The notes beneath the pieces are model-generated. The model saw nothing but the letters and a program-made list of their open reading frames with translations, was not told the DNA's origin and did no database searches. 64,000 bases of DNA from an uncultured Acidobacteriota bacterium (GTDB lineage: Bacteria; Acidobacteriota; Thermoanaerobaculia; UBA5066). A program made the translations under genes and the position numbers. Where the stretch lies: contig CAWIIN010000002.1 in assembly GCA_963836285.1 (NCBI GenBank), positions 2,016,021 to 2,080,020 on the forward strand. The letters are read 5' to 3'. Below are positions 11,607 to 58,563 of the stretch, piece by piece (the first letter of the stretch is position 1; the number at the start of each line of letters is the position of its first letter).

Positions 11607-11721
11607 GCCCATAGCCCGGCTGGCCGACCCACTGCTCGTCGCCCCAGACAAGCCTCCGGGACATCACGGGACAGCCGCTCGCCGCCGCTCTCCAGTCGGG
11701 AACACCTGTGATCCTGTCACC

Positions 11722-14071: not shown

Positions 14072-14249
14072 GAAAACTCCTCGTGCGGCATTGCCGCAGA
14101 AGAGACCATGGGATCCGGACCAGCCCGGGGGCACTGATACATCTGCATGCCGACACACTGTCGAAAAACGCGTCTCAAAACCGTCTATTAAGAGGGGGTG
14201 TGTCGTTCTGGGAAAGCCGGCGATCCCTTGGGTCATCCGTTGGAGAACG

Positions 14250-14856
<607 letters not shown>

Positions 14857-33316: not shown

Positions 33317-33317
33317 C

Positions 33318-39892: not shown

Positions 39893-40171
39893 ATGCACGG
39901 AAACAAGGAGAAGGTCATGGAAGACATCGCGCGCAGGAAGATCGAGGTCCTCGGCCCGGGCTGCGCCCGCTGCAAGGAGACGTACCGCGTCGTGCGCCAG
40001 GTCGTCGAGACCGACCACCTGCAGGCCGACGTCACGAAAGTCGAGTCGGTCGAACGGATGATCGAGCTCGGCCTCCTCGCGACGCCGGGCGTCGCCGTCG
40101 ACGGCAGGGTCGTCCTCTCGGGCCGCATCCCGAAGGTGGACGAGATCCGCAGGCTCCTCGGGGGCGGCTGA
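39893..40171 (+). CDS. Small redox-active disulfide protein (MTH895/thioredoxin_3 type)
   Basis: IEVLGPGCARC...TPGVAVDGRVVLSGRIP. Confidence 0.9.
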   Translation: MHGNKEKVMEDIARRKIEVLGPGCARCKETYRVVRQVVETDHLQADVTKVESVERMIELGLLATPGVAVDGRVVLSGRIPKVDEIRRLLGGG

Positions 40172-40181
40172 GCCGGCCGAC

Positions 40182-41135
40182 GTGGCACTCCGCCGCGGGA
40201 ACCGCGCACACGACGACGCGCTCGGGGATGGGGCGATGGACTCCCGCCTCTGGGCAAGCGCGGGGCTCAACGCGGCGATCACCGCCGCGGAGGTCCTCGG
40301 GGGGATCGCCTCGGGCAGCGTGTCACTCCTCTCCGACGCCGCGCACAACGCGAGCGACGTCATGGCCGTCGCCCTCGCGCTCGTGGCCCGGAAGCTGGGC
40401 CGCCGCCCTCCCACCGCCCGCCACACGTACGGATTCCGAAGGGCTGAGGTGGTGGCGGCGCTCGCCAACGCCGTCACGCTGATCGTGGTGACCGCCCTGA
40501 TCGCCCGCGAGGCCGTTCAGCGGTTGGTCCATCCCGAGCCGGTGGCTCGCGGCCTGATGCTCGCCGTGGCCCTCGGCGCGTTCGTCGCAAACGTCGCCTC
40601 GGTCTTCCTGCTCCGCCGCCACCGGGAGGAGGACGTGAACGTCAGGAGCGCGTTCCTCCACATGGCGCAGGACGCTCTCGCCTCGCTGGCGGTGGTCGTG
40701 GCGGCCCTCCTGGCCGGAACCGCGGTGGGGCCGTGGGTCGATCCCGCCGCGGCGCTCCTGGTCGGCCTCGTCGTGCTCCGGAGCGCCGTCTCCCTCGTGT
40801 GGGAGACGGTCTCGACGCTGCTCGAGGGAGTCCCCGCGGGCGTCGACGTCGAGGAGCTGGCCGCGAGCGTCGCCCAGGCGTTCGGCGACGGGCGACTGCA
40901 CCACGTCCACGTTTGGCAGGCCGGCCCGGGCCAGCTCCTCCTCACGGGGCACGTAGCGGTAGACGCCGAGGAGAGCGCGAAGGCCGTCGAGGGTCTGCTC
41001 GGAAGAATCAAGACGTTCCTCCACGAGAGATGGGGCGTGAGCCACGCGACCCTCGAGCCCGAGGTGACGGCGTGCGGGTCGAACGGGCTCCTCGGCGGCT
41101 GGGAGGCGAAACCTCCGCTGCCCTCGAAGCCCTAG
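40182..41135 (+). CDS. Cation diffusion facilitator (CzcD/ZitB-like)
   Basis: SLLSDAAHNASD, TYGFRRAE, NVRSAFLHMAQD, HHVHVW, HATLEPE. Confidence 0.93.
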   Translation: MALRRGNRAHDDALGDGAMDSRLWASAGLNAAITAAEVLGGIASGSVSLLSDAAHNASDVMAVALALVARKLGRRPPTARHTYGFRRAEVVAALANAVTLIVVTALIAREAVQRLVHPEPVARGLMLAVALGAFVANVASVFLLRRHREEDVNVRSAFLHMAQDALASLAVVVAALLAGTAVGPWVDPAAALLVGLVVLRSAVSLVWETVSTLLEGVPAGVDVEELAASVAQAFGDGRLHHVHVWQAGPGQLLLTGHVAVDAEESAKAVEGLLGRIKTFLHERWGVSHATLEPEVTACGSNGLLGGWEAKPPLPSKP

Positions 41136-42136
41136 CGGGACGGGAGAGCGGGTCTCGCGGCGCCGGCGGCGGGCGGGGCCGTGCCGACTGGTTCGAGCCA
41201 TTCGCGATTGGCGAACAGCTCGTCCGGGATGAGAACGTCGAAGTGGTTGAAGAGCGCCGTGACGAAGTGCGAGGCTGCCTCGTCGAGGGCCACGGGACGC
41301 TCGAGTACGAGCGCGCGCTGTCGGGAATGGTGGAACCTCGGGACGCGGTGCGGAACGAGGCGGCCCGCCGCGAGGTGATCCTGCAGCACGTCCCGCGACA
41401 GGAACGAAATGCCCTCTCCGTCGAGGATTGCCCGGACGATGAGGTGCAGGTCGTCGTGGACGATGACTCTCCGGAACTCTCCGAGGTCGTGTCCGGCAGC
41501 GCGCAGGTTGTTCTCGAGCAGGAGGCGGGAGCAACAGCCTTCACGACGGACGAAGAACGGCACGTCGAAGAGCGCCTCGAGCGTGGCGTCCGGTGAGGCG
41601 AGGCCGAGCGCGGGGGCGCTCGCGAAGATCACCTCGTCGCCGGGCAGGGAGAACGAGGCGAGATCGGAAAGGTCGAATGCCTCACACAGCTCCATGACCG
41701 CGAGGTCGAAGGAGTGGGCCGTGATGCCCGCGAGGATCTGGTCGGGGCTGTTGAAGACGAACTTGAGGTCCGCCGAGTCCGGGCAGGCAAGCATGAAGTC
41801 CTTGAGGACCTCCGGGAGGTGGGCGATTCCGAAGGACGCCGTGCAGGAGAACGAGATCCTCGTCTTTCCCCCGAGAACGCGGAGGCCCGACATCAGGTTC
41901 TGCTCGACGCCGAGAAGGGTCCGGGCCGCGTCGAAGACGAGCTTGCCGGCCGGAGTGGGCCGGAGCACCCGGCCGGACCGGTCGACGAGCTCGCAGCCGT
42001 ACTGCTCCTCGAGAATCCTGATGCGGCGCGAGACTCCGGGCTGGGTCAGGTTCAGGTTTTCCGCCGCGCGCGAGAAGGTTCCGGCGTTCACGACTTCGAC
42101 GAACGTTTTCAGGTAGGTCGACTCCACCGGCATCAC
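41132..42136 (-). CDS. LysR-family transcriptional regulator, divergent from the porin-cytochrome operon
   Basis: LKTFVEVV..GTFSRAAENLNLTQPGVSRRIRILE; CysL-like effector domain. Confidence 0.95.
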   Translation of the reverse strand: MMPVESTYLKTFVEVVNAGTFSRAAENLNLTQPGVSRRIRILEEQYGCELVDRSGRVLRPTPAGKLVFDAARTLLGVEQNLMSGLRVLGGKTRISFSCTASFGIAHLPEVLKDFMLACPDSADLKFVFNSPDQILAGITAHSFDLAVMELCEAFDLSDLASFSLPGDEVIFASAPALGLASPDATLEALFDVPFFVRREGCCSRLLLENNLRAAGHDLGEFRRVIVHDDLHLIVRAILDGEGISFLSRDVLQDHLAAGRLVPHRVPRFHHSRQRALVLERPVALDEAASHFVTALFNHFDVLIPDELFANREWLEPVGTAPPAAGAARPALPSR

Positions 42137-42148
42137 CTCGGGAGGGCG

Positions 42149-42167
42149 CCATGACGAGTCGTTATGG
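42149..42167. promoter_or_regulatory. LysR-type T-N11-A palindromic operator
   Basis: CCATGACGAGTCGTTATGG is a near-perfect inverted repeat with T-N11-A spacing, just upstream of the lysR start. Confidence 0.65.
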
Positions 42168-42271
42168 AGCCCATGCGGCCCGCGCAGTGTACCTGAGACG
42201 GGCGGCGCCCTAGGTTGTGGGCGTCGCCCTCGTGGCGACGTCTACCAGTCCAATTATCTTCAGGAGGTTGC

Positions 42272-43603
42272 ATGACATTCACACGGGTCCGAGTGCGCAC
42301 CGCACTCGCCACCGCCGCGGTGGCGGCCGTTCTGACGGCCGCCTCACCCGCCATCGCCATCGACCCCACCTTCGAGTTCCAGGTCAAGGGTCAGGTCTTT
42401 TCCGAGACCACGGATTTCGGCACAGGCGTGGATCGCTCCGGCTCGCGGACGGACATCCATTTCCAGCGCCTGCGGCTCGTCGTCACGGGCATGCTGGACG
42501 ACACCTACGGCTTCAAGTTCCAGACCTGCGGCGCCTGCGGGACCAGCAAGCAGGGTTCCCTCGGCTATGCCGTCACCCTCCAGGACGTCGACTGGAACGA
42601 TCGCGACATCCGCATCATCGACGGCTACGCGATCGCGAACTACTCCGACAAGCTGAACCTCAAGATCGGGTTGACCAAGATCCCCCTCACGCGCGCGAAC
42701 CTGGACGACTGCTTCGCGCCGTTGTCGCAGGACCGCTCGATGTGGGTCTACACGGCGTACGGCACGTCGCCGGCGAAGTTCAGCCGGGACCTCGGGGCCG
42801 TCGTCTGGGGGAACTTCCTCGACGACAGGCTGCGGTACTACGCCGCCCTGTTCCAGGGACGCGAAGGAATCGTGAAGACGACCCATCCCTTCAGCGGCGC
42901 CACGGTAACGTCCTCGCCGGAGCCCGAGAACTCGTTCGAGTACGTCGGCCGGGTTCACTACGCCTTCCTCGATCCCGAGCCCGGGTCCGGATATGAGGGA
43001 ACGTACTTCGGCGACTTGAAGGTCCTGACGCTGGGCGGCGGCGTCGCCTACGAGCCGAACGCCGTCTACAGGAACGTGACGAGCACGGGAGTCGTCCAGA
43101 ACCTGGATACCGTCGCCTACACGGCGTACGCGGCCGACCTCCTCTTCGAGTATCCGACGAAGGCGGGCGTGTTCACGGTCGCGGCGCAATACCTCAAGAC
43201 CGATTTCGACGACGCCTACAAGACGAACTTCAACCCCGGCGACCGCCTCGTCAACATCACCGGGCTGAACGGCCAGAAGAACGGCGGGTACGTGAAGGCT
43301 GGCTACATTCTCCCGCTCAAGATCGGAAAGAAAGGGCTCCTGCAGCCGTACTTTCTGACCGAAAAATGGAAGTTCGCCCACCTGCTCGGAATCGACAACC
43401 AGAAGGTCACGCAGACCGGTGGCGGCCTCAACTACTACGTCAGGCGGCAGAACATCCGGCTGACCGTCGAGTACCTCAGCACCAACTTCGACAAGCCGAC
43501 GGGCTTCATCGGTGCCCGGGTCGACCCGGTCACGTTCGCCCCCATCGACAAGCTGAAGAGCTTCGACACGTTCCGGCTCATGGTCCAGCTCGGCGTCTTC
43601 TAG
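42272..43603 (+). CDS. extI: Outer-membrane porin, ExtI-like (phosphate-selective porin O/P superfamily)
   Basis: Signal peptide, FQRLRL, KIPLTRANLDDCFAPLSQDRS, SRDLGAVVWGN, GRVHYAFLDPE..GYEGTYFG, terminal Phe; synteny with ext-like genes. Confidence 0.8.
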   Translation: MTFTRVRVRTALATAAVAAVLTAASPAIAIDPTFEFQVKGQVFSETTDFGTGVDRSGSRTDIHFQRLRLVVTGMLDDTYGFKFQTCGACGTSKQGSLGYAVTLQDVDWNDRDIRIIDGYAIANYSDKLNLKIGLTKIPLTRANLDDCFAPLSQDRSMWVYTAYGTSPAKFSRDLGAVVWGNFLDDRLRYYAALFQGREGIVKTTHPFSGATVTSSPEPENSFEYVGRVHYAFLDPEPGSGYEGTYFGDLKVLTLGGGVAYEPNAVYRNVTSTGVVQNLDTVAYTAYAADLLFEYPTKAGVFTVAAQYLKTDFDDAYKTNFNPGDRLVNITGLNGQKNGGYVKAGYILPLKIGKKGLLQPYFLTEKWKFAHLLGIDNQKVTQTGGGLNYYVRRQNIRLTVEYLSTNFDKPTGFIGARVDPVTFAPIDKLKSFDTFRLMVQLGVF

Positions 43604-43636
43604 ACAGCCACAGGAAATAACGAGGAGAGACATCTC

Positions 43637-43957
43637 ATGTTGAAAAGAATGACCATCACGCTCTTCGTGGCCGTGGCGCTCGTCGCCGCCGCCACCGTGT
43701 TCGCGGCGCCCGCGACGAACGGCAAGATTCTCGCGATCGACGGCACGTCCGTGAAGATCGCGATCGACGGGGAGAAACCCTCATGGATCAGGGTGGGCGC
43801 GCCTGTGAAGTTCAAGGACGGCGTCGGAAAGGTCCTCGAGGTCTCCGAGGAAGGTGTCACGCCGGTCGTCATCACCGTCAAGACGAAGAAGTCGCCGGAG
43901 ATGAAAGCCGGGGAGGCCGTCTCCTTCGAAAAGGGAAAGTCGACGGCGGGTTGCTGA
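43637..43957 (+). CDS. extJ: Small periplasmic ExtJ-like protein ending in Gly-Cys
   Basis: Signal peptide, GKILAIDG.SVKI..DGEKPSWIRVG, C-terminus KSTAGC; directly follows the porin. Confidence 0.7.
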   Translation: MLKRMTITLFVAVALVAAATVFAAPATNGKILAIDGTSVKIAIDGEKPSWIRVGAPVKFKDGVGKVLEVSEEGVTPVVITVKTKKSPEMKAGEAVSFEKGKSTAGC

Positions 43958-43991
43958 GACCTTGGATCTCCAGAGAAAGGAAGAGGATCCC

Positions 43992-44903
43992 GTGAAGTCG
44001 AAGCGCCTTGTCGTTCCGGTTCTCCTCGTCGGGCTGTTCACGCTGGGGGCGACTCCCATTTTCGCGGCGACTGCGGTAGAGGGCCTTCCGCCGGTCGTCT
44101 CGCCTTCGGTTCTCGCCGAACGTCTTGCGGCCGCGCCGGGCAGCATGGTGCTGCTGGACGCGCGTCCGGCGATCAAGGCGTATCTCGCGGGTCACCTGCC
44201 GGGCGCGCAGTTCGTCGTCGCCGACAGCCTCCGGTCGACGGCGGGCGGCGTGCCCGGCACCCTTTTTCCCTGGGAGACGATCCACCTCGTCGCCCACCGC
44301 CTGGGCGTCACGAGTGACGTTCCCGTCGTCGTGTACGGCGAGGAGAGCGACGTCGATGCGACTTACGTCGCGTCGGTGCTCCGACTGGCCGGCGTCAGAC
44401 AGGTCTCGATCCTCGACGGCGGCTTCGGGCGCTGGACGGCCGAGAAGCGTCCCGTGACGCCCGGGCGCAAGCCGGTGACGCCCTCGACGGAGACATTCAC
44501 ACCCCGGCCGGCCGACCTCGTCCGGCTCGACGAGGTGAAGAAGGCCGTCGAGGAGAACAGCGCCGTCCTCCTCGACGCGCGCCCTGTCGGTGCCTACAAC
44601 ACGGGTCACATCCCCGGCGCGAAATCGCGGTCCTGGGCGAAGGACATCGTCCCGGAAGGACAGCCGAACGCCGGCTCCTTCCGGCCCGACGCCGACGTCA
44701 GGGCGGACTTCGAGGCCGCGGGCGTGACCGCCGCGACGCCGGTCATCGTCTACTGCACGTCGGGCCATCAGGCCTCGCATCTCTTCTTCACGCTCCGCTA
44801 CCGCCTCGGCTACTCGAACGTCCGCCTCTACGACGGCTCCTGGCTCGAGTGGTCGATCACTCCCGGGCTGCCGAAGGAAGTTACTCCGCTTCCCGCGTCC
44901 TGA
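43992..44903 (+). CDS. Exported tandem-rhodanese sulfurtransferase (ExtH-like role)
   Basis: Signal peptide, two LLDARP..Y..GH(L/I)PGA domains, catalytic loop YCTSGHQAS, YDGSWLEW. Confidence 0.9.
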   Translation: MKSKRLVVPVLLVGLFTLGATPIFAATAVEGLPPVVSPSVLAERLAAAPGSMVLLDARPAIKAYLAGHLPGAQFVVADSLRSTAGGVPGTLFPWETIHLVAHRLGVTSDVPVVVYGEESDVDATYVASVLRLAGVRQVSILDGGFGRWTAEKRPVTPGRKPVTPSTETFTPRPADLVRLDEVKKAVEENSAVLLDARPVGAYNTGHIPGAKSRSWAKDIVPEGQPNAGSFRPDADVRADFEAAGVTAATPVIVYCTSGHQASHLFFTLRYRLGYSNVRLYDGSWLEWSITPGLPKEVTPLPAS

Positions 44904-44941
44904 TCTGCTGTCCCGCGGGCGGCGCAACGAGGAACGCCAGA

Positions 44942-47183
44942 ATGAAGAACGAGATCACCCGAAGGCGTTTCCTCGGAACCGCCGCCACGCTGGGCGCAGG
45001 TGCCGTCGCGGCGCCCGCTGTCGCAAGTCCGGGCGGTGCACCCGCCTGGATGGAGCGGCACCGAGCGAGTCGAGAAGATCGCGACGACCTGCGAGATGTG
45101 CTTCTGGCGCTGTGGCGTCCTCGCCTCGGTCGCTGGGCGGGAAGGTCGTTCGGGTCGAGGGGAATCCCGACCATCCCCAGAACCATGGCCGCCTGTGCGC
45201 CCGCGGAAACGCGGGCACCGGGCTGCTCTACGACCCCGACCGGCTGAAGACCCCGCTGCTGCGGATCGGAGAGCGCGGCGAAGGACGCTTCCGGCCCGTC
45301 GGCTGGGACGAGGCGCTCGACTTTCTCGCTGGCCGCCTCGTGAGGCTGCGCGACGAGCACGGCCCGGAAAGCGTCGCCCTCTTCCCGCACGGCAACGGCG
45401 CGCGCTTCTTCGCGACGCTGATGCGCGCATACGGCACGCCGAACAGCGCCGAGCCGTCCTTCGCCCAGTGCCGCGGCCCGCGGGAGGTGGGCTACTCGCT
45501 CACGTTCGGGCAGGGCCTCGGCTCTCCCGAGCCGGTCGATCTCGAGGAGGCGAGGCTCATCGTCCTGATCGGAAGCCATCTGGGCGAGAACGTCTTCACG
45601 TCCCAGATCACCGCGTTCGCGACGGCCTCTCTCGCGGCGCAAAGCTGATCGCGGTCGATCCGCGCTTCTCGACCGCCGCGTCCAAGGCCGACTGGTGGCT
45701 GCCGATCCGGCCCGGCACCGACATCGCGCTGCTCCTCGCGTGGATGAACGTCCTGATCGCCGAGGATCTTTACGACCGGGAATACATCGAGACGTACGCC
45801 ACGGGGTTCGATCGGCTCGTAAAGCACGTCCGGGAGTTCACGCCGGAGTGGGCCGAGGCGATCACGGAGATTCCCGCCGCGAAGATTCGCGAGACGGCGC
45901 GGGCGATGGGCAAGGCGAAGCCGGCCGTCGCCGTTCACCCCGGGCGGCACGTTACCTGGTACGGCGACGATACGCAGCGCGCCCGGGCGATGGCCATCCT
46001 CACGGCTCTGCTGGGGAGCTGGGGGCGAAAGGGCGGCATCTTCCTCCCCACGCCGGTCGCGCGCGGGAGCTTCGATCTCCCGGACTTCCCGGAGTCCAAG
46101 CGGGGCCGCGCAGATGGCGCGGGGAAGCGTTTCCCGCTCGCCATCGAGGAGCTCGGCGTCACGAACGGGCTGATCGACGCGACGCTGTCCGGCGATCCCT
46201 ACCCGATCAAGGCGTGGATCGTCTACGGGCAGAACGTGCTGGAGAGCATCCCGCAGCCGGCCCGGACGATCGAAGCGATCGGGAAGCTGGACCTGATGGT
46301 CGTCGTCGACGTGCTGCCGGTCGAGCAGATCAGGTTCGCGGATCTGGTGCTGCCGGAAGCGACTTATCTCGAGCGCTACGATCCGCCGACGATCGTGGAA
46401 TCCGCCAAGCGGCCGTTCATCGCGGTCCGCTCTCCGGCTTGCGAGCCCCTCTACGAGTCGAAGCCAGGATGGTGGATCGCGAAGGAGCTGGCGAAGAGGC
46501 TGAAGCTGGAGGCGTTCTTCCCGTGGGAGACGCCCGAAGAGCACTCGAGACGATCCTGGAGCCGACCGGGTTCGCGCCCGGGAGCTCGTGAGCCGCGGGG
46601 CGGTGGCCTTCCCGGGCAAACCGTACCTGGAGGACCGCGCCCTGGACGATCGCACCTTCGACACGGCGAGCGGGAAGATCGAGCTCTACTCGGAGGCGCT
46701 CGCGAAGATCGGCGCGGATCCGCTGCCGCGGTACACGGCGCCCCTGCGAGCCGCCGCGGGGCTTCGTCCGGCTGATCTACGGCCGCGCGCCGGTGCATTC
46801 GTTCGCGCGGAGCCAGAACAACGCGGCGCTCGACGCCCTGATGCCCGAGAACGAGGTCTGGCTCGCGCACGGCCGTCGCCCGCGACCTGGGGCGTGCGGC
46901 GGGTCAGCGGATCGTCCTCGAGAACAGCGAGGGCGTGAAGAGCAGCCCGGTCCGGGTCAAGGTCACCGAAGGAATTCGCGCCGATTGCGCCTACCTCGTC
47001 CACGGCTTCGGCCACACGTCGCGAGCTCTGCGCCGCGCCTTCGGCCGGGGAGCCTCCGACAACTCGCTCACGAGCCGGGTGAGCGTCGATCCGCTGACGG
47101 GCGGAACCGGGATGCGCGTGAATTTCGTGCGTCGCGGCCCGGGCGTGAAGGGAGAAGACGAGTGGCCCGATACGCGATGGTGA
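44942..47183 (+). CDS. Tat-exported molybdopterin oxidoreductase catalytic subunit (PsrA/PhsA family), multiply frameshifted
   Basis: Pieces across frames: TRRRFLG (Tat), CEMCFWRC, GRLCARG...YDPDRLKTPL, FAQCRGP, DPRFS...ADWWLPIRPGTD, ADLVLPEATYLERYD, TASGKIE, HSFARSQNN, VHGFGH. About 7 frame switches; the 3' end is approximate. Confidence 0.88.
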
Positions 47184-47893
47184 CGGACCTGCGCAAGTGC
47201 GTGGCCTGCCAGGCCTGCACGGTCGCGTGCAACGCCGAGTGGGACTGTTCCGGCCGGGTACGCGCGGACGCATGTGCGGACGACGCCTCTGGCCGGGACC
47301 TTCCCGCAGCTGACTTCAGCCTTCACGTCGCCCAGTGCAACCAGTGCGACCGCCCGCCCTGCGTCGAGCCGTGCCCCTCGGGCGCGACGTATCGGGACGC
47401 CGGCGGGATCGTGCGCGTCGACCGCGATGTCTGCATCGGCTGCGGCTTCTGCGTCGAGGCCTGCCCCTACGAGGCGCGGTTCATCAACCCGGTACGAAGA
47501 AAGTGGACAAGTGCGACTTCTGCGCGGCCGCGAATCGCGCGCGGCGAGGAGCCCGCCTGCGTCGCGACCTGCACCGGCCACGCCAAGTACTTCGGCGACC
47601 TCGAGGATCGCGACAGCGAAGTGTCACGGCTCGTGTTCCGCGACGGGGCCCGCCGGATGGAGACCCGGACGGTCGCCGTGGGGCCGAACGTCTACTATCT
47701 CGGGCGGCCCGAGCATCTCGACCTGGTCCTCAGCAGCTTCCCGCCCCGGCCCCCGCGGCTCCTCACGGCCGGCGCGGCATGGACGAGGCTCCTGAAGCCG
47801 CTCGTCCTCGCCATGGTGGGGATGACGTTCGCGGGCCAGGCCGTGGCGTTCTTCACGCAGCTCCGAAAGGGGGAGGGCAACTTTGAGGAGTGA
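47162..47893 (+). CDS. 4Fe-4S electron-transfer subunit (PsrB/PhsB-like) with C-terminal TM helix, compensating frameshifts
   Basis: CVACQACTVAC, CNQCDRPPCVEPCP, CIGCGFCVEACPY, KCDFC (shifted frame), PACVATC. Confidence 0.88.
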   Translation: MARYAMVTDLRKCVACQACTVACNAEWDCSGRVRADACADDASGRDLPAADFSLHVAQCNQCDRPPCVEPCPSGATYRDAGGIVRVDRDVCIGCGFCVEACPYEARFINPVRRKWTSATSARPRIARGEEPACVATCTGHAKYFGDLEDRDSEVSRLVFRDGARRMETRTVAVGPNVYYLGRPEHLDLVLSSFPPRPPRLLTAGAAWTRLLKPLVLAMVGMTFAGQAVAFFTQLRKGEGNFEE

Positions 47894-48729
47894 CGCCATC
47901 CCGCTCGTGCCGGTGCCGCTCACCTCGGAGCAGGCCGAGACGATGCTCCAGCGGCAGATCAAGAAGCACCACGTCGCGATCATGCTCCTGCACTGGTTCA
48001 ACGCGGTGACTGGATCTTCGAGGTCTCGACCGGAGCCGCGCTCATCTCCTCGCCGACTCTTTTCGCGTCGCCCCCGAGTGGTATCTCGCGATCCTCAAGG
48101 GCCTGTTCGGCACGCGCGCCAATCTGCTGCGCTTCCACATCGCCCTGGGCCTCACCTGGATGGGCGTCTTCCTCGTCTACGGAGTCTTCGGTTTCCGCAC
48201 GTACTTGCGCGGCGAGGTGCTGAAAAGGAGATCGCACTGGACAGGGACGACGTGCGCTGGCTGATCGTCCGCGCACTGCGCATCCTCGGCACGCACCGAC
48301 GAGGCCCTTCCGCCTCAGGGGATCTACAACGCCGGGCAGAAGCTATTCGCCATGGTGGTCTACGCGATGCTGCCGGTGGTGATGGTGACCGGCGCGATCA
48401 TGACGTTCCGGCTCTTCTCGCCGCGCGTGGTCGGATGGGCGGTGGTTCTCCACTTCACCGCCGTCGGCATGGTCGTGTCCGGGCTGATCGTCCACGTCTA
48501 CATGGGTGCCGTCTTCCCGGAAGAGAAGCCGGCGTTCTTCTCCATGATCACCGGAACCGTCAACGAGCTCTACGCCTACAACCACCACTTCAAGTGGTGG
48601 AGGGAGATGAAGACGGAGCAGCTGGCCTGGGACCGGCGGCGCGAGCCGGTGGCGGAAGCGGCCGGCACCGAGGAACCGACGAGCGGCGACGGAGCCGCAC
48701 CCGGACCGCCGCAAGGGCACGCGGGCTGA
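47883..48729 (+). CDS. FdnI/PhsC-type cytochrome b membrane anchor, frameshifted
   Basis: MLLHWFNA, LLRFHIALG (other frame), PQGIYNAGQKLF, VLHF...IVHVYM...SMITG.V...YAYNHHFKW. Confidence 0.82.
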
Positions 48730-48746
48730 GTCGTGGCCGTGGCGAC

Positions 48747-50588
48747 GTGAGAGGTCCCTGCGTCTTTCTTCTGGTCGTCGCGGGGTTGCTCGCCGGGTGC
48801 GTGAGAGCCGCCGGCAGAGGAGAAGGGTGCATCGGCTGCCATAGCGCCCTCGAGGTCGCCTCGCGCTCCCACGCGGGCTGCGTTTCCTGCCACGGCGGGG
48901 ACGCGACCGCGACCGCCGCGGCGGCGGCGCACCGGGGAATGTACGGACGCAGGGATCGCTCGAGCCCCGACCGCTGGCAGCTCGCGTGCGGCTCCTGCCA
49001 CCGCGATCAGGTCGACCGTATGACGAGCGGCCAGATGTTCACGAACGCGGGGATGATCGCGCAGATCCAGGCCACCTGGGAGGGCGAGCGGCCGGGCGTC
49101 CGCTTCGGCGCCGCGGACGCGCGCCCGTATCGGCCCGACGGCTCCGAGGTCGCGGTCGCCTCGGTCGCCGGCCTCGACGGCCTCTCGGGCGAGCTGTACC
49201 GCAAGTTCTGCTCTCGCTGCCATCTCGGCATGGCGGACGACGATCCCACCGAGCCGCGCCATCCCGCGGGCTGCGCGGCCTGTCACTTCCCCTACGGTGA
49301 AGGCGCGGTATACCGGGGTGGCGACGGGACGGTTCGCGGCCGGAGTCCGCACAGCGCCACCCACGAGCTTCAGGGGCTGCCCCCGATGGAGGCCTGCGCG
49401 CGCTGCCACGACCGGAGCGGCCGGACGGCGCTCACCTACCAGGGACTCATGGACGGCAACAACGCTCTCGTGCCGACGAGGCTCGGGCTGGCCGGGCCGG
49501 TGAAGGGCACCGAGGAGCGCTCGTTCACGCACATCGCCGCGGACGTTCACTTCGACGCCGGCATGGAGTGCATCGACTGCCACACGTCGCGCGAAACGAT
49601 GGGAGACGGCTTTGCCCACGCGAACATGGAGGGCCAGCTCGAGATCCGCTGCGAGGACTGCCACGGCGACGGGAAGCGGCCGCCGCGCTTCGTCGAGGCG
49701 ACGCGCGAGAGCGACTCTCCCGTGCGCGAGTCGCGCCAGTACGCCCGCCCCGTGAGCCCCGGCGCGCGGATGGCGCTGACGAGCAAGGGGCGGCCGTACT
49801 CGAACGTCTTCGAAAGCAGGGGCGAGGTGATGCTCGCGGTCAAGCGGACCGGCAAGCTCCTCAGGAGCCCCGTCATCACGGGAACGCCCGCCCATACGAT
49901 CGCCGGCCACGAGCGGATGGAGTGCTCGGCCTGCCACTCGCGTGCGGTGCCGCAGTGCTTCGGCTGTCACACGAGCTACGACAGGCGGGTCTCGAGCTGG
50001 GACGTCATCAAGGACGAGGACAGTCCCGGAGAGTTCGCCGAGACCGAGGACGTCCGCACCCTTTACCCGTTCCCCCTGGCCGTCAACGGCCGCGGCGGCA
50101 TCGCGCCGGTGACTCCCGGCTGTCAGACGTTCGTGACGGTGATCGAGACGGACGGGCGCCGCTCGAAGGACGAGGCCGTGGCCCGCTACAGGGGAAAGCC
50201 GCAGATGCGATTCGCGCCCTTCTATTCCCACAACACCGGCCGCCGTGCCGTGGGGTGCGCCGAGTGCCACGGCGATCCGGCGTTCCTCGGCTTCGGACAG
50301 CATGTCCTGGAGGGCGGTGCGATTCGCGGCACGCTCCTCTGCGAACGCAACCCGAAGAAGGCGCTCGACGGATTCCTCTCGATGGAGGCCGGCCGCGTCG
50401 TGTCCTACGCGGCAATCTCGCGAACGGGAGCCCGGCCCCTGAATCACAAAGAGGTGTTCGGCGTCCTCGCGGTCAATCTCTGTCTCGTCTGCCACGAGAA
50501 GGCCGACGACCCCGTCTATCGAAAGAGGCTCGACCATGGCGCGCTCGACGACGCTCTTCATCGCCGCCTGCTGGCTGCTCGCCGCTAG
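48747..50588 (+). CDS. extM: 12-heme c-type cytochrome, ExtM-like
   Basis: GTG at 48747, lipobox-like LLAGC; twelve CxxCH (CIGCH, CVSCH, CGSCH, CSRCH, CAACH, CARCH, CIDCH, CEDCH, CSACH, CFGCH, CAECH, CLVCH). Confidence 0.8.
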   Translation: MRGPCVFLLVVAGLLAGCVRAAGRGEGCIGCHSALEVASRSHAGCVSCHGGDATATAAAAAHRGMYGRRDRSSPDRWQLACGSCHRDQVDRMTSGQMFTNAGMIAQIQATWEGERPGVRFGAADARPYRPDGSEVAVASVAGLDGLSGELYRKFCSRCHLGMADDDPTEPRHPAGCAACHFPYGEGAVYRGGDGTVRGRSPHSATHELQGLPPMEACARCHDRSGRTALTYQGLMDGNNALVPTRLGLAGPVKGTEERSFTHIAADVHFDAGMECIDCHTSRETMGDGFAHANMEGQLEIRCEDCHGDGKRPPRFVEATRESDSPVRESRQYARPVSPGARMALTSKGRPYSNVFESRGEVMLAVKRTGKLLRSPVITGTPAHTIAGHERMECSACHSRAVPQCFGCHTSYDRRVSSWDVIKDEDSPGEFAETEDVRTLYPFPLAVNGRGGIAPVTPGCQTFVTVIETDGRRSKDEAVARYRGKPQMRFAPFYSHNTGRRAVGCAECHGDPAFLGFGQHVLEGGAIRGTLLCERNPKKALDGFLSMEAGRVVSYAAISRTGARPLNHKEVFGVLAVNLCLVCHEKADDPVYRKRLDHGALDDALHRRLLAARR

Positions 50589-51693
50589 CGCGGCCCGGCT
50601 CGCGGACGCGAGTCCCGGCCCGGTGGAAGCCGGGTCGGCGGCGGCGGCCTGCCTGCGCTGCCACGAGTCCGCTCGAGGCGTGCTGGAGGGCCGGATGGCC
50701 ACACGGTCCGGCGAACGCGCATTAGCGCGGCGGGCGTTCGGAGTCGAAGGCGACCGTTTCTTCGCTTCGGCCTGCGCCGGATGCCACGTCGCGAAGTGCG
50801 CCGATTGCCACGGAGAGGAACCGCACCGCGCCGGCCGGCCGAGGAACGAGGCCTGCCTGCGTTGTCATAACGGGTACTCGGCGGGCTGGGAGTACGAGGG
50901 CCGCGCGCCGCGCGAGGATCACGCCCGTTACCGGCGCGGAGCGACGGCCCAGGGAGAGCCGTTCCTCAGGATGCTTGCCGACGTCCACTTCGAGCGCGGG
51001 ATGAGCTGCGCGGATTGCCACACGATGAAGTCGCTTCAGGAAGGGAAGCGCGCCGCGCGGGGCTGCCGGGACTGCCACACGCCGGCGGCGTCCTCGAGCC
51101 CGGAGCACGCGATCGCGGCACACCTCGAGAAACTGTCCTGCGTCGCCTGTCACGCCTCCTGGGCGGCCCAGGAGTACGGGACGTTCCTGATCCGGCCCGC
51201 GAACGCGGAACAGGAGGAGAGCGTTCTCTCCGTTCCCTAGTGGGGGCCGTGGCGCAAGAGCGCCCACCTGAAGCGGCAGGACGCGCCGCCTCTCGGGCTC
51301 GACCGGGAAGGCCTCGTGTCGCCGATCCGCCCGCGCTTTCTGCTCTTCGTGACCGATCCGAAGAACGGCGTCGAGAACCGGCTCGTGGCGGCGGAGTGGC
51401 GCGCCTTCTCGCCGCACACGGTGCGCCGCGGGACCGTCGCCTGCGGCGGCTGCCACGACAACCGGCGGCGCTTTCTCCTCGAGCGGGACGACGAACGGCT
51501 CTATCGGCTCGAGAAGGACGGTCTGCCGCTGCGGTCGTACTGGAATCGCGACAGGCAGATCGTCGTCAACGGCTCGTTCTTTCCGCCCGGACGCTACGTC
51601 CGGATGAACGTCAGGTCTCCCGAATACGCCCGACAGGTCGTGAACCGATGGCAGAAGCTCCTCGCTCCCGCCGCTCCGCGCTCGAAGCGCTAG
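50536..51693 (+). CDS. Multiheme c-type cytochrome (8 CxxCH) interrupted by an in-frame TAG at 51238-51240
   Basis: ORFs 50536..51240 and 51316..51693 share a frame; seven CxxCH before the TAG and CGGCH after it; coding-like sequence continues directly past the TAG. Confidence 0.8.
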
Positions 51694-52106
51694 GCCTCTT
51701 CGTGCTCGGGGCGGCCGGGCTCTGGCGTTTTCTCACTCCGCGCAGCGGGGCGGGAGGATCGCGGCCGGCGTTCGTCCGGATCGCCGAGCGGGAGATTCCG
51801 GAGAACGGCGCGCTCGTCCTGCCCGAGTCGGGCGTCGCCGTCGTGCGCGAGGGCGAGGATCTCCTCGCGCTCGACGTCGGCTGCACCCACCTCGGGTGCA
51901 CGGTGACGGCCAACGCGAACGGCTTCGCCTGCCCGTGCCACGGCAGCCGCTTCGGCACCTCGGGCCAGGTGCTCACGGGGCCCGCGCCGCGCCCGCTCGG
52001 CCGACTGGCGATCCGGAGGGAAGGAGGCTCCATCCACGTTCCGCGCGGACGGGGTGCCGGTCTCGAGGCTCCCGGCGGCGTGCGAAACCCCGTCGAGGCC
52101 GGATAG
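51648..52106 (+). CDS. Rieske 2Fe-2S protein
   Basis: SRRSAL plus TM segment, [24 protein letters not shown] at 51648. Confidence 0.92.
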
Positions 52107-52111
52107 GCGTC

Positions 52112-52732
52112 ATGTTCAAGGAGCTCGCGAAGCACCTCTTCCCGCGGATGGTCCTGGGCGACAACCTGCGGATCCGATACACGTTTTGCCTCGGAGGCCT
52201 CGCGTTCACGTGCCTCCTCGTCCTCGCAGGAACCGGTCTCCTTCTCCTCTTCTATTACAGCCCGTCTCCCGCCGGCGCCCACGCCTCGATTCAGTTCCTC
52301 GAAAACGCCGTCTGGGGAGGGGGCTTCGTCCGGAGCCTGCATCGGGTCGCGTCGCACGTCCTTCTCGTTCTCGTCGCGTTTCACACGCTGCGGGTGCTCC
52401 TGACCGGAGCGTTTCAGCGGCCCCGAAGGCTGAACTGGGTCGTCGGGTGTCTCCTGCTGTTCCTGTGCGTCCTCGAGGCCTACACCGGCTACCTGCTTCC
52501 GATGGACCAGCTCGCGTACTGGGCTACGCAGACGGGCATGGAGCTGCTGCGGACGCTCCCGTTCGGGGACTCCGCGCGCTCCGTCCTGGTTCCGGACGCG
52601 GTGGGTGGGCCGCTGTCGCTGCTCCGGTTCTTCGCCCTCCACGTCGCGGTCGTTCCGCTCGTTCTGTTCGTTCTGTCGATGCTCCACTTCTTCATCGTTC
52701 GCAGGCAGAAAGGCCTTCTCCCTTACCTGTGA
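52112..52732 (+). CDS. extP: Cytochrome b6-like N-terminal subunit, ExtP-like
   Basis: YTFCLGG, GLLLLFYY.P, RSLHRVASH, HTLRV, NWVVG, TGYLLPMDQLAYWA, RFFALHV, LHF. Confidence 0.88.
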   Translation: MFKELAKHLFPRMVLGDNLRIRYTFCLGGLAFTCLLVLAGTGLLLLFYYSPSPAGAHASIQFLENAVWGGGFVRSLHRVASHVLLVLVAFHTLRVLLTGAFQRPRRLNWVVGCLLLFLCVLEAYTGYLLPMDQLAYWATQTGMELLRTLPFGDSARSVLVPDAVGGPLSLLRFFALHVAVVPLVLFVLSMLHFFIVRRQKGLLPYL

Positions 52733-53139
52733 GCGGATTCGTCCCCAGCTCCCCGCACCTCTTCAGGCCGCTCGAGCGGGCGCTTCTCGGCGGCGTCGCT
52801 CTGCTTTTCCTCCTCGCCGTCTTCTTTCCCGCGCCCCTCCAGATCGCGGCCGACCCGGCGCACCCGCCGAATCCAGCCAAGTCCGCTTGGTTCCTCCTGT
52901 GGATCCAGGAGCTCGTGAGCCACGACACGCTCGCGATTCACGCGGCGCTCGCGCTCGCGATCCTGCTCGTGGCGCTCCCGTGGCTGCCGATCCGGCCGGT
53001 CGAACGGGCCTCGTGGTTTCCGCGCCCGCAGAGGACGCTCGCCGTGATCGTCGTCGTCGTCTGCGGTGTTCTCGTCGCCCTCACGGCGACGGGACTGTTC
53101 TTCCGGGGGCCCGATTGGCATCTCGTCTCGCCCTTCTGA
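52729..53139 (+). CDS. extQ: Cytochrome b subunit IV-like membrane protein, ExtQ-like
   Basis: PAPLQIAADPAHPPNPAKSAWFLLWIQELVS, LPWL, FFRGPDW. GTG overlaps the previous stop. Confidence 0.82.
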   Translation: MSGFVPSSPHLFRPLERALLGGVALLFLLAVFFPAPLQIAADPAHPPNPAKSAWFLLWIQELVSHDTLAIHAALALAILLVALPWLPIRPVERASWFPRPQRTLAVIVVVVCGVLVALTATGLFFRGPDWHLVSPF

Positions 53140-53996
53140 TCGCGCCGCTTCTCCTCGTGGCGGGAGGCTGCGCGAAGACGCACGCGGAGGCCCGCGCCGG
53201 CGAGGGCTGCCGCGGCTGCCACGTGACGCGCCATGCGGAACGAGGGCCATGCGCGTCCTGCCACGGCGGCGATCCGGCCGCCGCGCGCGAGGAGCTCGCG
53301 CACCACCGCCTGATCACCGGAAGGGCCGCCGAGCACGGCATGCCGGACTCTCGGGCTGTGGCCGAGGGGCGCGACCGAGTCGAGCGACTCGCGTGCCGCA
53401 GATGCCACACCATCGGCGCGTCGGGCAATCGGCTCGCGACGAACCTCGACCGCGTCGCCTGGAGACGCGATCAGGCCGAGCTCGCGCGCTCGATCGGCAC
53501 GCCCGTCGAGAACATGCCGCGGTTCGGCCTCGATCGAGGTCAGGTCGAAGCCGCGATCGCGTACCTCCTGCATTCGGCGGACCCGAGCCTCGGAACGGAG
53601 ACGTACCGCGTCCGGTTCGCGAAGCGGGAAAGTGCTCGTGATTCGAGCCTCGAGACCCGATGCGGCGGATGCCACCGGACTCTCGGTGCCGGGAGCCCGC
53701 TCGGGAGAGGATCGGCCGGCCCCAACCTCTCGGGCGTCTTCACGGCTTTCTATCCGCCGACGGCGCCGGGAAGACGACCCTGGACTCCGTCGACGCTCCA
53801 AAGATGGCTCGAAAACCCCCGGGTGCTGCGGCCCGGAACGGCCATGCGCCCGGTCCGCGTCGCAGCCGCAGACTTCCGGGTCCTCGTCGAGGAACTCGGT
53901 GGGGCCTCATCTTGCTCGAAGGGGAGCCGCCGGGTGGGCGCCCGTCAGGGCGCGGGCGACTTCGAGCCGCAGGTGTTCAGCCCGAACAGCGAATAG
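53115..53996 (+). CDS. extS: c-type cytochrome lipoprotein with 4 CxxCH, ExtS-like
   Basis: TTG at 53115, lipobox VAGGC, CRGCH, CASCH, CRRCH, CGGCH, GPNLSG, WLENPR..RPGTAM. Confidence 0.75.
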   Translation: MASRLALLIAPLLLVAGGCAKTHAEARAGEGCRGCHVTRHAERGPCASCHGGDPAAAREELAHHRLITGRAAEHGMPDSRAVAEGRDRVERLACRRCHTIGASGNRLATNLDRVAWRRDQAELARSIGTPVENMPRFGLDRGQVEAAIAYLLHSADPSLGTETYRVRFAKRESARDSSLETRCGGCHRTLGAGSPLGRGSAGPNLSGVFTAFYPPTAPGRRPWTPSTLQRWLENPRVLRPGTAMRPVRVAAADFRVLVEELGGASSCSKGSRRVGARQGAGDFEPQVFSPNSE

Positions 53997-54079
53997 GCCG
54001 GACAGTTCCCCGCGAGCCCGGTCACGAGGGGATGAGGCCGCGGTGACTCCTTCCGGCCGCCCAACGTCCGGCGGGGCTC

Positions 54080-55219
54080 TCAGACGAGACGGAACTCCCA
54101 GCCACAATGCCCCTGCGCACCGGCGTCCGGCGGGCACGAGAGGCAGCGCGTCGTGATGCGCGGGTCGACGGTGCGCGCGAAGGTCTCGAACTCCACCTCG
54201 CCGACGGGCCTGCACGGGAAGTCGGGCAGGCCCTTGCGCCGGCGCGTCTCCTGTACGCGGCAGGACGTCATGAAGAAGCGCAGGACCGCGCCCTCCCGCT
54301 CGACCCGGCTGGGGTTCACGAAGCTGTAGGCCCGGAAGGAGAGCGCCCGCGCGAGCGCGTCGAGGCCGCCGTCCTTCGGGATCGCGTACGTCTCCATGAT
54401 CCGCCGCGCCTCGGCCGCCGCGAAGCGCCGCCACGCTCCAGCGTCGAGCTCCATTGCCACGTCCATCCCGAAGCGCTCCTCGGCGGCGAGGAACCAGCTT
54501 CCGTCGTGGGCGAGCCAGTTCTTCGCGAAGACGTCGAGTGCCTTGAGGAGGCCCGGGCGGTCGAGCGCTCCGAACGCGGGCGGCACCGCGGCATCCGCGG
54601 CGGCGGGAGCCGAGAAGGTCGCGAATCGCTCGTGGTGAGCCTCCCCCGCGGCGGTCTCCACCAGGCCGAGCGCGGACAGGAACCCGCGGGTCCAGTCCAG
54701 GGTGACGGGACCCTCCGGGTGGATGCGCTCCTCGGCCGCGTGGACACGCGCCGCGAACGCGAAGCCCTCGGGCGAGAAATCCGCGAGGAGGAGAACGCCG
54801 CCGGGCCGGACGACGCGCACGACCTCGCGCAGGACGGACGCGCCCTCGGCGAGGTGGTGGAGGACGTTGAACGAAACGGCGGAGGCGAAGGCGCCGTCGG
54901 GGAAGGGGAGCGCGGCCCCGTCTGCCGGCGTGAAGCGGATCGCGGCCTCGAGGCCCGTTCCGAGGGTGAGAGACGCGGCGACCTCCTGGTCCCCGGCGTT
55001 CACGTCCACGCTCTCGACGGTGAGTCCGCGCCGCGCGAGCTCGCGCGCCATGCCGCCCATCCCGGTGCCGAGATCGAGGACCGGCCCGTCGAGCGGGCCC
55101 GCCGCGTCGAGGACGAGCGCCGCGGCGCGCGCGCCGTCGTGTCCGAGAGCCGCGAAGGCCGCGCGCCGCTTCCGGAACGACTCTTTCCGACGCTCGATCT
55201 CGTCGGAGGCCAGCGTCAC
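54080..55219 (-). CDS. Class I SAM-dependent methyltransferase fused to a DUF6125-like Cys-rich domain
   Basis: VLDLGTGMG, LPFPDGAF, VVRPGG; then KNWLAHDGSWF, CRVQ..RRRKGL..FPC, CLSCPPD...CGWEF. GTG at 55219. Confidence 0.82.
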   Translation of the reverse strand: MTLASDEIERRKESFRKRRAAFAALGHDGARAAALVLDAAGPLDGPVLDLGTGMGGMARELARRGLTVESVDVNAGDQEVAASLTLGTGLEAAIRFTPADGAALPFPDGAFASAVSFNVLHHLAEGASVLREVVRVVRPGGVLLLADFSPEGFAFAARVHAAEERIHPEGPVTLDWTRGFLSALGLVETAAGEAHHERFATFSAPAAADAAVPPAFGALDRPGLLKALDVFAKNWLAHDGSWFLAAEERFGMDVAMELDAGAWRRFAAAEARRIMETYAIPKDGGLDALARALSFRAYSFVNPSRVEREGAVLRFFMTSCRVQETRRRKGLPDFPCRPVGEVEFETFARTVDPRITTRCLSCPPDAGAQGHCGWEFRLV

Positions 55220-55389
55220 GCGTCCGTTTCCTTCTTCGCCTCCGGCCCCGTCGGCCTCGAGCAGCTCGCCCCGCCTCCGGCGGGACCCGGAGCCCCTCAC
55301 GTCGGGACGCCGAGGCGCGGGAGGACGAACTTCTGGAGGAGTACCCAGACGAGGAGGGCGCCCCACAGCCATGCGGCGTCGGCGGTCAT
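55216..55389 (-). CDS. Small membrane protein with an in-frame UGA; candidate selenoprotein (57 aa with readthrough, 30 aa without)
   Basis: MTADAAWLWGALLVWVLLQKFVLPRLGVPT-UGA-GAPGPAGGGASCSRPTGPEAKKETDA*. Fills the gap between two operon genes; its final stop overlaps the next GTG; a hairpin follows the UGA. Confidence 0.6.
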
Positions 55390-55396
55390 GGCGGAC

Positions 55397-58155: not shown

Positions 58156-58169
58156 GGCGGTGGTGTCTC

Positions 58170-58532: not shown

Positions 58533-58563
58533 ATGACGATCATGGGCCGGCCCCCCGGGGGGG

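Follow-up and report, generated by a model that had tools for sequence, protein, structure and literature searches.

The window analyzed in this work is a 64,000-nucleotide stretch of DNA (C2:2016021-2080020) from an uncultured Acidobacteriota bacterium, whose genome assembly, G000, comprises 3 contigs and 3.87 Mb at ~70% G+C. It contains an operon related to the ext clusters of Geobacter sulfurreducens, in which genes for a molybdenum (Mo) enzyme stand in the place of the selenoprotein gene extKL. Twelve genes on the plus strand (42272-53996) make up the operon, with tight or overlapping packing, and every one of them is present where a preliminary description, made from the sequence alone, had placed a 12-gene run. 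The Ext-like kinship proposed there was confirmed by the hidden Markov models (HMMs) of the Ext families, with the NCBIfam cut-offs passed by ExtI, ExtM, ExtN, ExtQ and ExtS. A scan of positions 41500-54600 gave no promoter-like sites and 7 terminator-like sites versus 6.0 expected.

The first gene (42272-43603) encodes ExtI, an outer-membrane porin of the phosphate-selective porin O/P family, which scores 298.3 bits with NF040900 (porin_ExtI, cut-off 150), matches Pfam Porin_O_P and is 71-77% identical to the porins of four Acidobacterial loci (L019, L021, L023 and L037). It is followed by a small exported ExtJ-like protein of 106 residues (43637-43957) that ends in Gly-Cys and reaches 39.8 bits with the ExtJ model NF040942, below the cut-off of 52.5. 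The third gene (43962-44903) codes for an exported tandem-domain rhodanese of the SseA/TST-like type with an N-terminal hydrophobic signal (Pfam Rhodanese, 108.7 bits over two stretches). Its score with the NCBIfam model for 3-mercaptopyruvate sulfurtransferase is 112 bits and its best PDB match is the rhodanese 1uar_A; with 66.4 bits against the ExtH model NF040901, under the cut-off of 200, it is not an ExtH equivalog. Upstream of the operon lies a divergent gene for a LysR-family regulator (41132-42136, minus strand; Pfam HTH_1 79 bits, LysR_substrate 94 bits), and a divergent LysR regulator is also reported for extHIJKL-like clusters in the accessible text of PMC6148476.

The next three genes form the molybdenum module. 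They encode a PsrA/PhsA-type catalytic subunit with a molybdenum-bis(pyranopterin guanine dinucleotide) cofactor (Mo-bisPGD; 44942 to ~47160; Pfam Molybdop_Fe4S4 and Molybdopterin, best NCBIfam model PhsA), a PsrB-like iron-sulfur (FeS) subunit with four clusters and a C-terminal hydrophobic tail (47162 or 47177 to 47893; Pfam Fer4_11, 68.7 bits), and a diheme cytochrome b membrane anchor of the FdnI/PhsC type (47943-48729), which was recognized via the matches of its ortholog in a same-genus relative, G009. None of the three is an open frame as assembled, and frame hops are visible in them.

The remaining genes correspond to the ExtM-ExtS part of ext clusters. ExtM is a 12-heme lipoprotein cytochrome c (48747-50588; NF040943, 901.9 bits, cut-off 800) with 12 CxxCH motifs and a LLAGC lipobox. 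ExtN is an 8-heme cytochrome c (50536-51693) that matches NF040967 with 265.7 bits (cut-off 200) on its first 234 amino acids and has 8 CxxCH motifs if read through. A Rieske 2Fe-2S protein (51648-52106; Pfam Rieske 44 bits, NCBIfam PetC-like matches under cut-off) holds the ExtO position, as does its counterpart in the G009 cluster. It precedes the cytochrome b6-type subunit ExtP (52112-52732; Pfam Cytochrome_B 125 bits), for which NF040969 (ExtP) is the best model at 224.0 bits, below the cut-off of 290. The last two products are ExtQ, a subunit IV-like membrane protein (52729-53139; NF040970, 154.1 bits, cut-off 150), and ExtS, a 4-heme lipoprotein cytochrome c (53115-53996; NF040971, 254.5 bits, cut-off 100) with 4 CxxCH motifs. 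The NCBIfam model NF040968 ('FeS_ExtO', 416 positions) gives 266.8 bits on the ExtN cytochrome (50536-51237) and has no match to the Rieske proteins of the window (51669-52103) or of G009 (L014:16074-16532); judged by these matches, it seems to model ExtN-like cytochromes rather than ExtO.

The molybdenum module and ExtKL

The catalytic subunit of the window carries the twin-arginine translocation (Tat) signal RRRFLG and the motif CEMCFWRCG. Its intact G009 ortholog (734 amino acids) aligns over residues 6-734 with Thermus thermophilus PsrA (2vpw_A; 769 bits, E = 3e-230). The cysteine of the G009 stretch SFAQCRGPREV, which is also present in the window, aligns with a cysteine of T. thermophilus PsrA that we take to be the molybdenum ligand. 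Such a ligand cysteine is stated for the PsrA/PhsA/SrrA lineage in the accessible text of PMC7331816. The FeS subunit of G009 is closest to PsrB (2vpw_B, 156.6 bits) and aligns with FdnH (1kqf_B) to residue 227, C-terminal tail included. The G009 anchor matches FdnI (1kqf_C, E = 2.6e-11) with both helix-4 histidines aligned, and scores 77 bits with the formate dehydrogenase gamma model TIGR01583, below its cut-off of 116. The window module has no NrfD-type anchor of the PsrC kind, its anchor being an FdnI-like cytochrome b; together with the FdnH-like tail, this gives an alpha-beta-gamma redox-loop layout. An arsenate reductase was rejected on the scores of the G009 catalytic subunit (ArrA 159 bits versus PsrA 769), and a formate dehydrogenase on the cysteine ligand in a Psr context and an Fdh-alpha score of 249 only. 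At E <= 1e-20, the window gene is the sole PsrA-like gene in its genome.

Among 61 genomes, the window's own included, ExtM was found above cut-off in three (G000, G009 and G030), and the copy in G026 is split; none of 14 control genomes had it, one control list, made for another family, including T. thermophilus. In each of the clusters of G009, G030 and G026 (L014, L015 and L016, respectively), this Mo-FeS-cytochrome b module immediately precedes ExtM, with intact genes in G009. The PsrA/PhsA-type module that the preliminary description saw in the ExtKL slot is therefore kept in related clusters, and its refuting case, a module absent from them, does not apply. The arrangement goes far beyond chance: this gene order is found again in relatives with 79-87% identity at the DNA level, and across phyla. 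No tblastn match to ExtKL at E <= 1e-3 was found in the window or in the whole genome, and the ExtKL model NF040886 (cut-off 250) is above cut-off in none of the four genomes, with 21.8 bits as the best match in G000.

In the Geobacter-type locus L061, the order is ExtH-ExtI-ExtJ-ExtKL-ExtM, with selenocysteine (Sec) in ExtKL. A scan with one genome per species gave 397 ExtM relatives, of which the best 80 loci were kept and the window was added. They were classed by tblastn with proteins of G009, proteins of L057 (a locus from a Desulfuromonadaceae metagenome-assembled genome, MAG) and a Geobacter-type ExtKL, and 17 loci were too short to judge. The 64 informative loci divide into 39 with the Mo module, 11 with ExtKL and 14 with neither; no locus has both. 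By our own grouping of record titles, the 39 Mo loci include 11 from Acidobacteria/Thermoanaerobaculia/Vicinamibacteria (the window among them), 25 of the Desulfuromonadales/Geobacteraceae type, two from Eisenbacteria and one unlabelled. L082, counted among the 25, is a doubtful member, with 35% identity and on the opposite strand. The comparison of ExtKL with the Mo enzyme that was suggested in the preliminary description thus came out as mutual exclusion. The view that the arrangement is special to this genome or to Acidobacteriota had to be given up: among the 80 best ExtM loci, no context is as frequent as the Mo module, and many of the loci with it belong to Desulfuromonadales-type MAGs.

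In Acidobacterial ExtKL genes, the TGA codon of the stretch GHGIPDG-U-PTPNRLV is retained, as are five CxxCH motifs. In a quick ExtM tree (FastTree, 81 sequences, root unknown), the Mo and ExtKL states need at least six changes, and the ExtKL-type locus L020 nests inside the otherwise Mo-type clade of the window with 96-98% local support. The Mo module itself occurs in at least three designs and at two positions across ext loci. The first design, with an FdnI-type anchor upstream of ExtM, is that of Acidobacteria; Desulfuromonadales-type MAGs have a design with an NrfD-type subunit and a triheme c7 cytochrome. The PsrA of the latter scores 730 phmmer bits against G009, below the 769 bits of Thermus PsrA, and a third kind of PsrA (L078, L092 and L094) scores 684 bits. 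Since the Desulfuromonadales-type module is built differently and its PsrA is farther from G009 than Thermus PsrA is, this comparison suggests that Psr modules were recruited into ext clusters more than once.

Individual variant loci add detail to these designs. In the Eisenbacteria MAGs (L031 and L036), an FdnI-type Psr module with a Mo subunit ~70% identical stands downstream of ExtS, and ExtH and ExtI stand in front of ExtM, joined by ExtJ in L031 only. At L057:1013-9556 and in similar loci, the Mo variant begins with a 686-residue outer-membrane protein that has no NCBIfam match, followed by ExtJ, a fusion of cytochrome c with a triple rhodanese, PsrA, the NrfD-type subunit, the FeS subunit, a triheme cytochrome of 118 residues and ExtM.

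The front of the operon varies as well. The order in G009, G026 and G030 is rhodanese-ExtJ-Mo with no porin, and other Acidobacterial loci have porin-ExtJ-Mo without that rhodanese; the window (porin-ExtJ-rhodanese-Mo) combines both. Judged by gene order, the operon front is rearranged within a genus. A gene for the selenophosphate synthetase SelD with one in-frame TGA was found in all four genomes checked, namely G000 (C3:406479-407456, minus strand), G009, G026 and G030. By this marker, these Acidobacteria use selenocysteine though their ext clusters have no selenoprotein ExtKL, and absent selenocysteine machinery was rejected as the reason for the loss of ExtKL. On the comparative data, the Mo module is a non-orthologous replacement of the terminal reductase in a conserved chassis; the function shared by the two enzymes is what we infer from it.

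The Gly-Cys C-terminus is found in 40 of 41 ExtJ homologs (loci L017-L094), across phyla and in Mo-type and ExtKL-type clusters; the exception, L023, looks like a frame problem. In an alignment of 28 sequences, G105 and C106 are the sole invariant columns. The AlphaFold model is a small six-stranded beta barrel with a mean predicted local distance difference test score of 78.5, reaching ~90 in the core and lower in the C-terminal tail. A Foldseek search of the PDB gave no matches at E <= 0.001, the best being generic small beta barrels of F1-ATPase subunits, and phmmer against the PDB returned nothing meaningful. A SoxY-like fold, considered as a candidate, is unsupported by the Foldseek search. 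The invariant terminal cysteine hints at a sulfur or selenium carrier.

Candidate substrates and electron route

Little was clear about the role of the ext cluster before ExtKL was identified as a polysulfide reductase. According to the accessible text of a preprint (bioRxiv 10.1101/2025.11.18.688581), ExtKL, renamed MccSep, is a periplasmic pentaheme selenoenzyme of G. sulfurreducens that is induced by elemental sulfur (S0) and required for S0 respiration. It prefers polysulfide as a substrate, reduces selenite more poorly and does not act on thiosulfate, tetrathionate or sulfite; the preprint authors count the way in which polysulfide crosses the outer membrane, and any parts for sulfur transfer, among the things not yet known. 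The selenite/tellurite frame in which the preliminary description had set the cluster is dated by these results. As ExtKL is exchanged recurrently, and in mutual exclusion, for a Thermus-PsrA-like enzyme, the simplest reading of the swap is that of one terminal polysulfide reductase for another, with the porin, ExtJ, rhodanese and Rieske/cytochrome b-multiheme parts of the operon kept.

On balance, we lean towards reading the cluster, which is of the Ext type (extHIJ...MNOPQS), as an operon for respiration with a chalcogen acceptor in the periplasm, in all likelihood S0-derived polysulfide, as its gene content and comparative context suggest. The anion porin ExtI would admit the soluble substrate, and the exported rhodanese and ExtJ with its invariant C-terminal cysteine would handle sulfane sulfur. 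By homology, the Tat-exported PsrA-like Mo-bisPGD enzyme, with the PsrB-like FeS subunit on the FdnI-type anchor, would reduce the substrate with electrons from menaquinol. ExtMNOPQS would act in the same pathway as a Rieske/cytochrome b6-type quinol:multiheme-cytochrome oxidoreductase. In the preliminary description, two quinol modules fed the Mo enzyme; both are indeed present, as the FdnI-like cytochrome b and the Rieske/b6 complex, and the feeding of the enzyme by both is putative.

Several observations weigh against a polysulfide-respiring operon of this kind. The PsrA/PhsA/SrrA lineage contains polysulfide, thiosulfate and selenite reductases (accessible text of PMC7331816), and the substrate is unreadable from sequence. 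The G009 Mo subunit, with 509.7 bits, also misses the cut-off (694) of the PhsA equivalog model PRK15488. Since the Mo module brings a quinol anchor with it, the anatomy leaves its coupling to ExtMNOPQS optional. Finally, ExtI is above cut-off in none of the G009, G026 and G030 genomes, and the porin is thus not an obligatory part.

A serious alternative, though a less likely one, is that the Mo module serves chiefly to reduce some other chalcogen acceptor, either selenite or tellurite (Srr-like) or thiosulfate (Phs-like), and that the operon is the corresponding respiration or detoxification system. The Ext families bear the NCBIfam title 'selenite/tellurite reduction operon', and deletion of extI in G. 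sulfurreducens is reported to impair selenite and tellurite reduction (accessible text of PMC5877670). SrrA falls within the PsrA/PhsA lineage (accessible text of PMC7331816), and a rhodanese neighbor, such as the one adjoining the window Mo gene, is regarded as a marker of selenite reducers (Srr) in the accessible text of PMC8528874. PhsA is the best NCBIfam model, and the anchor is a cytochrome b of the FdnI/PhsC kind, not NrfD. Genes for ArsP, ArsR and a cation diffusion facilitator (CDF) lie nearby, with an ArsP homolog flanking the G009 cluster too, and MccSep itself reduces selenite, albeit less well (same preprint). However, the nearest characterized relative by far is Thermus PsrA (769 bits versus 159 for ArrA, SrrA not being among the references compared), and the enzyme that was replaced prefers polysulfide and is without thiosulfate activity in the accessible text of bioRxiv 10.1101/2025.11.18.688581. 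The missed PhsA cut-off also counts against this alternative.

Other genes of the window were annotated around the operon. On the minus strand at 32651-34862, a multiheme cytochrome (Pfam Cytochrome_cB, 229.7 bits) stands before a membrane protein of the cytochrome b561 type (Ni_hydr_CYTB, 88 bits); judged by these domains, they are a second respiratory pair. Between this pair and the ext operon (37395-41183, plus strand) there are genes for an ArsP-type permease, an ArsR regulator and a CDF efflux protein, together with thioredoxin-like and CcdA/DsbD-like proteins recognized by eye. The G009 cluster is flanked by a close homolog of the ArsP permease, with ACR3/ArsC-like and ArsP genes directly upstream. 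Downstream of the operon (54083-58574, minus strand) are encoded a fusion of an S-adenosylmethionine methyltransferase with DUF6125, a pyridoxal phosphate enzyme of Cys/Met metabolism (503 bits) and, recognized by eye, a class-V aminotransferase/desulfurase-like protein and an ArsR-like regulator; these genes may represent sulfur or selenium amino-acid chemistry beside the operon. Far from it, the segment 11167-14252 does not follow the third-codon-position G+C (GC3) periodicity of the genome and has a G+C content of 0.62-0.64. It includes minus-strand open reading frames at 11722-12360 and 12357-14156, the second with a HEFGH zinc-protease-like motif. A search of 9000-16000 against Rfam gave no match, and the segment may be foreign DNA.

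Single-base indels in the module genes

The frames of the module genes were compared with the G009 locus L014, which is 86% identical at the DNA level over 9 kb. Twenty indels were counted at 45036-48290, each of a single base, with 12 bases inserted and 8 deleted. The Mo gene holds ten of them, the FeS gene four and the cytochrome b gene five, and one more sits where the Mo and FeS genes meet. Changes in the following region (48291-53902) are limited to multiples of three and two compensating pairs. One of these pairs, a +1/-1 pair in ExtN at 51219/51230, leads to an in-frame TAG at 51238-51240.

When guided by the G009 frame, the three module genes have no stops, and the guided Mo subunit is 91.1% identical to that of G009 (666 of 731 residues), the best conserved protein of the cluster. 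Branch-specific substitutions were assigned with G030 as outgroup. In the Mo gene, 59 of 87 changes private to the G000 branch are at codon position 3, and the nonsynonymous fraction, N/(N+S), is 0.36 versus 0.30-0.41 on the sister branches. Pseudogene decay in bacteria shows a deletion bias, and indels that are all of 1 bp and go both ways are not its usual product. Patches of dense frame hops also cut ordinary genes elsewhere in the assembly into many frame segments; the three top patches inspected, outside the window at C1:61148-62701, C1:77582-81539 and C3:473109-475346, affect a sigma-54 activator, four genes of an ABC transporter and a fimbrial usher. A GC3-periodicity HMM gave 284 candidate frameshifts genome-wide, with 22 of 968 4-kb bins holding at least three; it recovered only 4 of the 20 known module indels, and the genome-wide count is thus a lower bound. 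Its candidates within the window are at 676, 14469, 14706 and 26384. Completeness of the genome is only 91.9% despite its 3 contigs. Paralog-driven mis-polishing was rejected as the cause of the indels, there being no second copy of the module in the genome.

Because of the purifying substitution pattern, the absence of stops in the guided frame, the 1-bp indels in both directions and the similar patches elsewhere, the 20 module indels and the ExtN pair are probably consensus errors and not gene decay, as far as base-level comparison can tell. Gene calls from this assembly accordingly need care. The data are not uniform on this point, and part of them weighs on the other side. The N/(N+S) values of the G000 branch for the FeS (0.51) and cytochrome b (0.50) genes are somewhat above those of the sister branches, with small counts. 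The indels are almost exactly confined to the three module genes, which could also fit a real recent loss. Among public sequencing runs, the one listed, from soil DNA (0.06 of words), gave sparse short contigs at 85% likeness and is too thin to judge the indels; no RNA run was listed. Contigs of this run that are identical to the window fell outside the module, and those inside carried 11 other letters each and derive from relatives; one contig is without the G at 48010/48011 and yet also bears a relative's substitution.

That the three module genes and ExtN are true pseudogenes in this strain, with the terminal reductase being lost from an otherwise intact ext cluster, we regard as unlikely. 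The main argument for decay is the placement of 20 of the 24 single-base indels against G009 in 45036-48290, nearly matching the three module genes, with none in rhodanese, ExtM, ExtP, ExtQ or ExtS. The missing paralogous copy, which leaves mis-polishing unexplained, and the missing same-strain cover at the indel sites in the public run point in the same direction. Decay is at odds, however, with indels that are every one exactly 1 bp long and run in both directions, with the purifying pattern of substitutions on the G000 branch, with a guided frame free of nonsense codons in which the Mo subunit is the best conserved of the cluster, and with the comparable patches that break ordinary genes elsewhere.

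Comparison with known systems

A broader reading of the exchange is offered here tentatively, as the less probable extension of the polysulfide proposal: the ext cluster may be a modular chassis for chalcogen respiration into which unrelated terminal polysulfide or selenite reductases were plugged repeatedly and interchangeably. Its parts would be the anion porin, the Cys-tailed ExtJ, the rhodanese and the Rieske/cytochrome b-multiheme quinol oxidase. The plug-in reductases would be the heme-Sec enzyme MccSep and two forms of Psr, one anchored by an FdnI-type and the other by an NrfD-type subunit. The Rieske/b-type complex and the multiheme cytochromes would then work with a Mo-bisPGD enzyme, and ExtJ would be a new sulfur or selenium carrier. 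If true, the pairing of the Rieske/b complex with a Mo-bisPGD enzyme would be an electron-input arrangement not described for that enzyme family.

Very improbable is the view, put forward originally for extHIJKL, that the cluster conducts electrons across the outer membrane to reduce metals outside the cell, the Mo enzyme being a functionally unlinked neighbor or insertion: extHIJKL contributes to reduction of Fe(III) citrate, Fe(III) oxide and Mn(IV) oxide in multi-deletion backgrounds (accessible text of PMC6148476), large multiheme cytochromes are present and the Mo module has its own quinol anchor, but a Psr-like module is linked to ExtM in 39 of the 64 informative loci, in three labelled groups, varied designs and two positions and always without ExtKL, no outer-surface cytochrome is encoded in the cluster, and ExtKL is now assigned to periplasmic polysulfide reduction (accessible text of bioRxiv 10.1101/2025.11.18.688581).

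The preliminary description knew of no account of this arrangement, and neither a Mo enzyme within an ext cluster nor any ext cluster of Acidobacteriota turned up as described in the literature that we searched, supplements and subscription journals lying outside the search. The text of PMC5877670 and PMC6148476 contains no 'molybd', and the Mo variant is unmentioned in PMC11976967, PMC10553843 and PMC7399161. In the main text of the MccSep preprint (bioRxiv 10.1101/2025.11.18.688581), the terms 'gene cluster' and 'Acidobacteri' are absent, and Psr is mentioned just as a further class of known enzymes.

One conserved operon links two unrelated polysulfide reductases, which makes the role of the ext chassis testable. 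Most of the environmental relatives examined have a classical Psr-type molybdoenzyme instead of ExtKL, never together with it in those loci. From the genomic side, the swap independently supports a role of the whole cluster in sulfur/polysulfide (or selenium) respiration. It also makes ExtI, ExtJ and the rhodanese candidates for the missing parts that admit the substrate and transfer sulfur, and widens the range of the system to Acidobacteriota of peat and soil.

Among the characterized molybdoenzymes, Srr of B. selenitireducens, compared by description and not by sequence, belongs to the same lineage and is rhodanese-associated (accessible text of PMC7331816 and PMC8528874). PhsA of Salmonella PhsABC represents the best NCBIfam model for the window-type Mo subunit, yet its cut-off is missed (509.7 versus 694). 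E. coli FdnGHI shares the FdnH-like tail and the FdnI-like cytochrome b with the window, whose enzyme is not a formate dehydrogenase. Thermus PsrABC (PDB 2vpw-2vpz) has in common with the window the Tat signal, the FS0 cluster motif, the Mo-ligand cysteine and the PsrB-like FeS subunit. The window module differs from it in being embedded in an ext operon, in the FdnH-like C-terminal hydrophobic tail of the FeS subunit and in its FdnI-type diheme cytochrome b anchor, unlike the NrfD-type PsrC of Thermus.

ExtKL/MccSep shares with the Mo module the slot between ExtJ and ExtM in ExtKL-type loci, Acidobacterial ones included, and a putative role as the periplasmic terminal reductase. The two are otherwise unrelated: ExtKL is a soluble pentaheme cytochrome with Sec, without a Mo cofactor and without a membrane anchor of its own. 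The Desulfuromonadales-type Mo variant (L057) resembles the window in having ExtJ, a rhodanese domain, a PsrA-like and an FeS subunit directly upstream of ExtMNOPQS, and no ExtKL. Its PsrA is only 46% identical, and the variant differs in the NrfD-type anchor, the gene order A-C-B, the added triheme cytochrome, a rhodanese fused with a cytochrome c domain and a large outer-membrane protein of another kind.

The G. sulfurreducens cluster extHIJKLMNOPQS (GSU2940-2930) has, like the window, ExtI, an ExtJ ending in Gly-Cys, a rhodanese, the 12-heme ExtM, a multiheme ExtN and a Rieske protein. Its ExtM-S part is also called Cbc6. The likeness extends to the cytochrome b6-type ExtP, ExtQ, the lipoprotein cytochrome ExtS and the divergent LysR regulator (accessible text of PMC5877670 and PMC6148476). 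According to the accessible text of PMC2825233, an ExtK-type cytochrome occurs in all six Geobacter genomes, and ext/Cbc6 is among the best-conserved Geobacter cytochrome clusters. ExtN of the window has 8 heme motifs, versus 10 reported for GSU2934 (accessible text of PMC5877670), and its ExtJ and ExtP fall under their NCBIfam cut-offs. The rhodanese of the window is short, SseA-like and placed after ExtJ, whereas ExtH of Geobacter stands before ExtI. In contrast to the Geobacter cluster, the window has no ExtKL, and a PsrA-FeS-cytochrome b module is found in its place.

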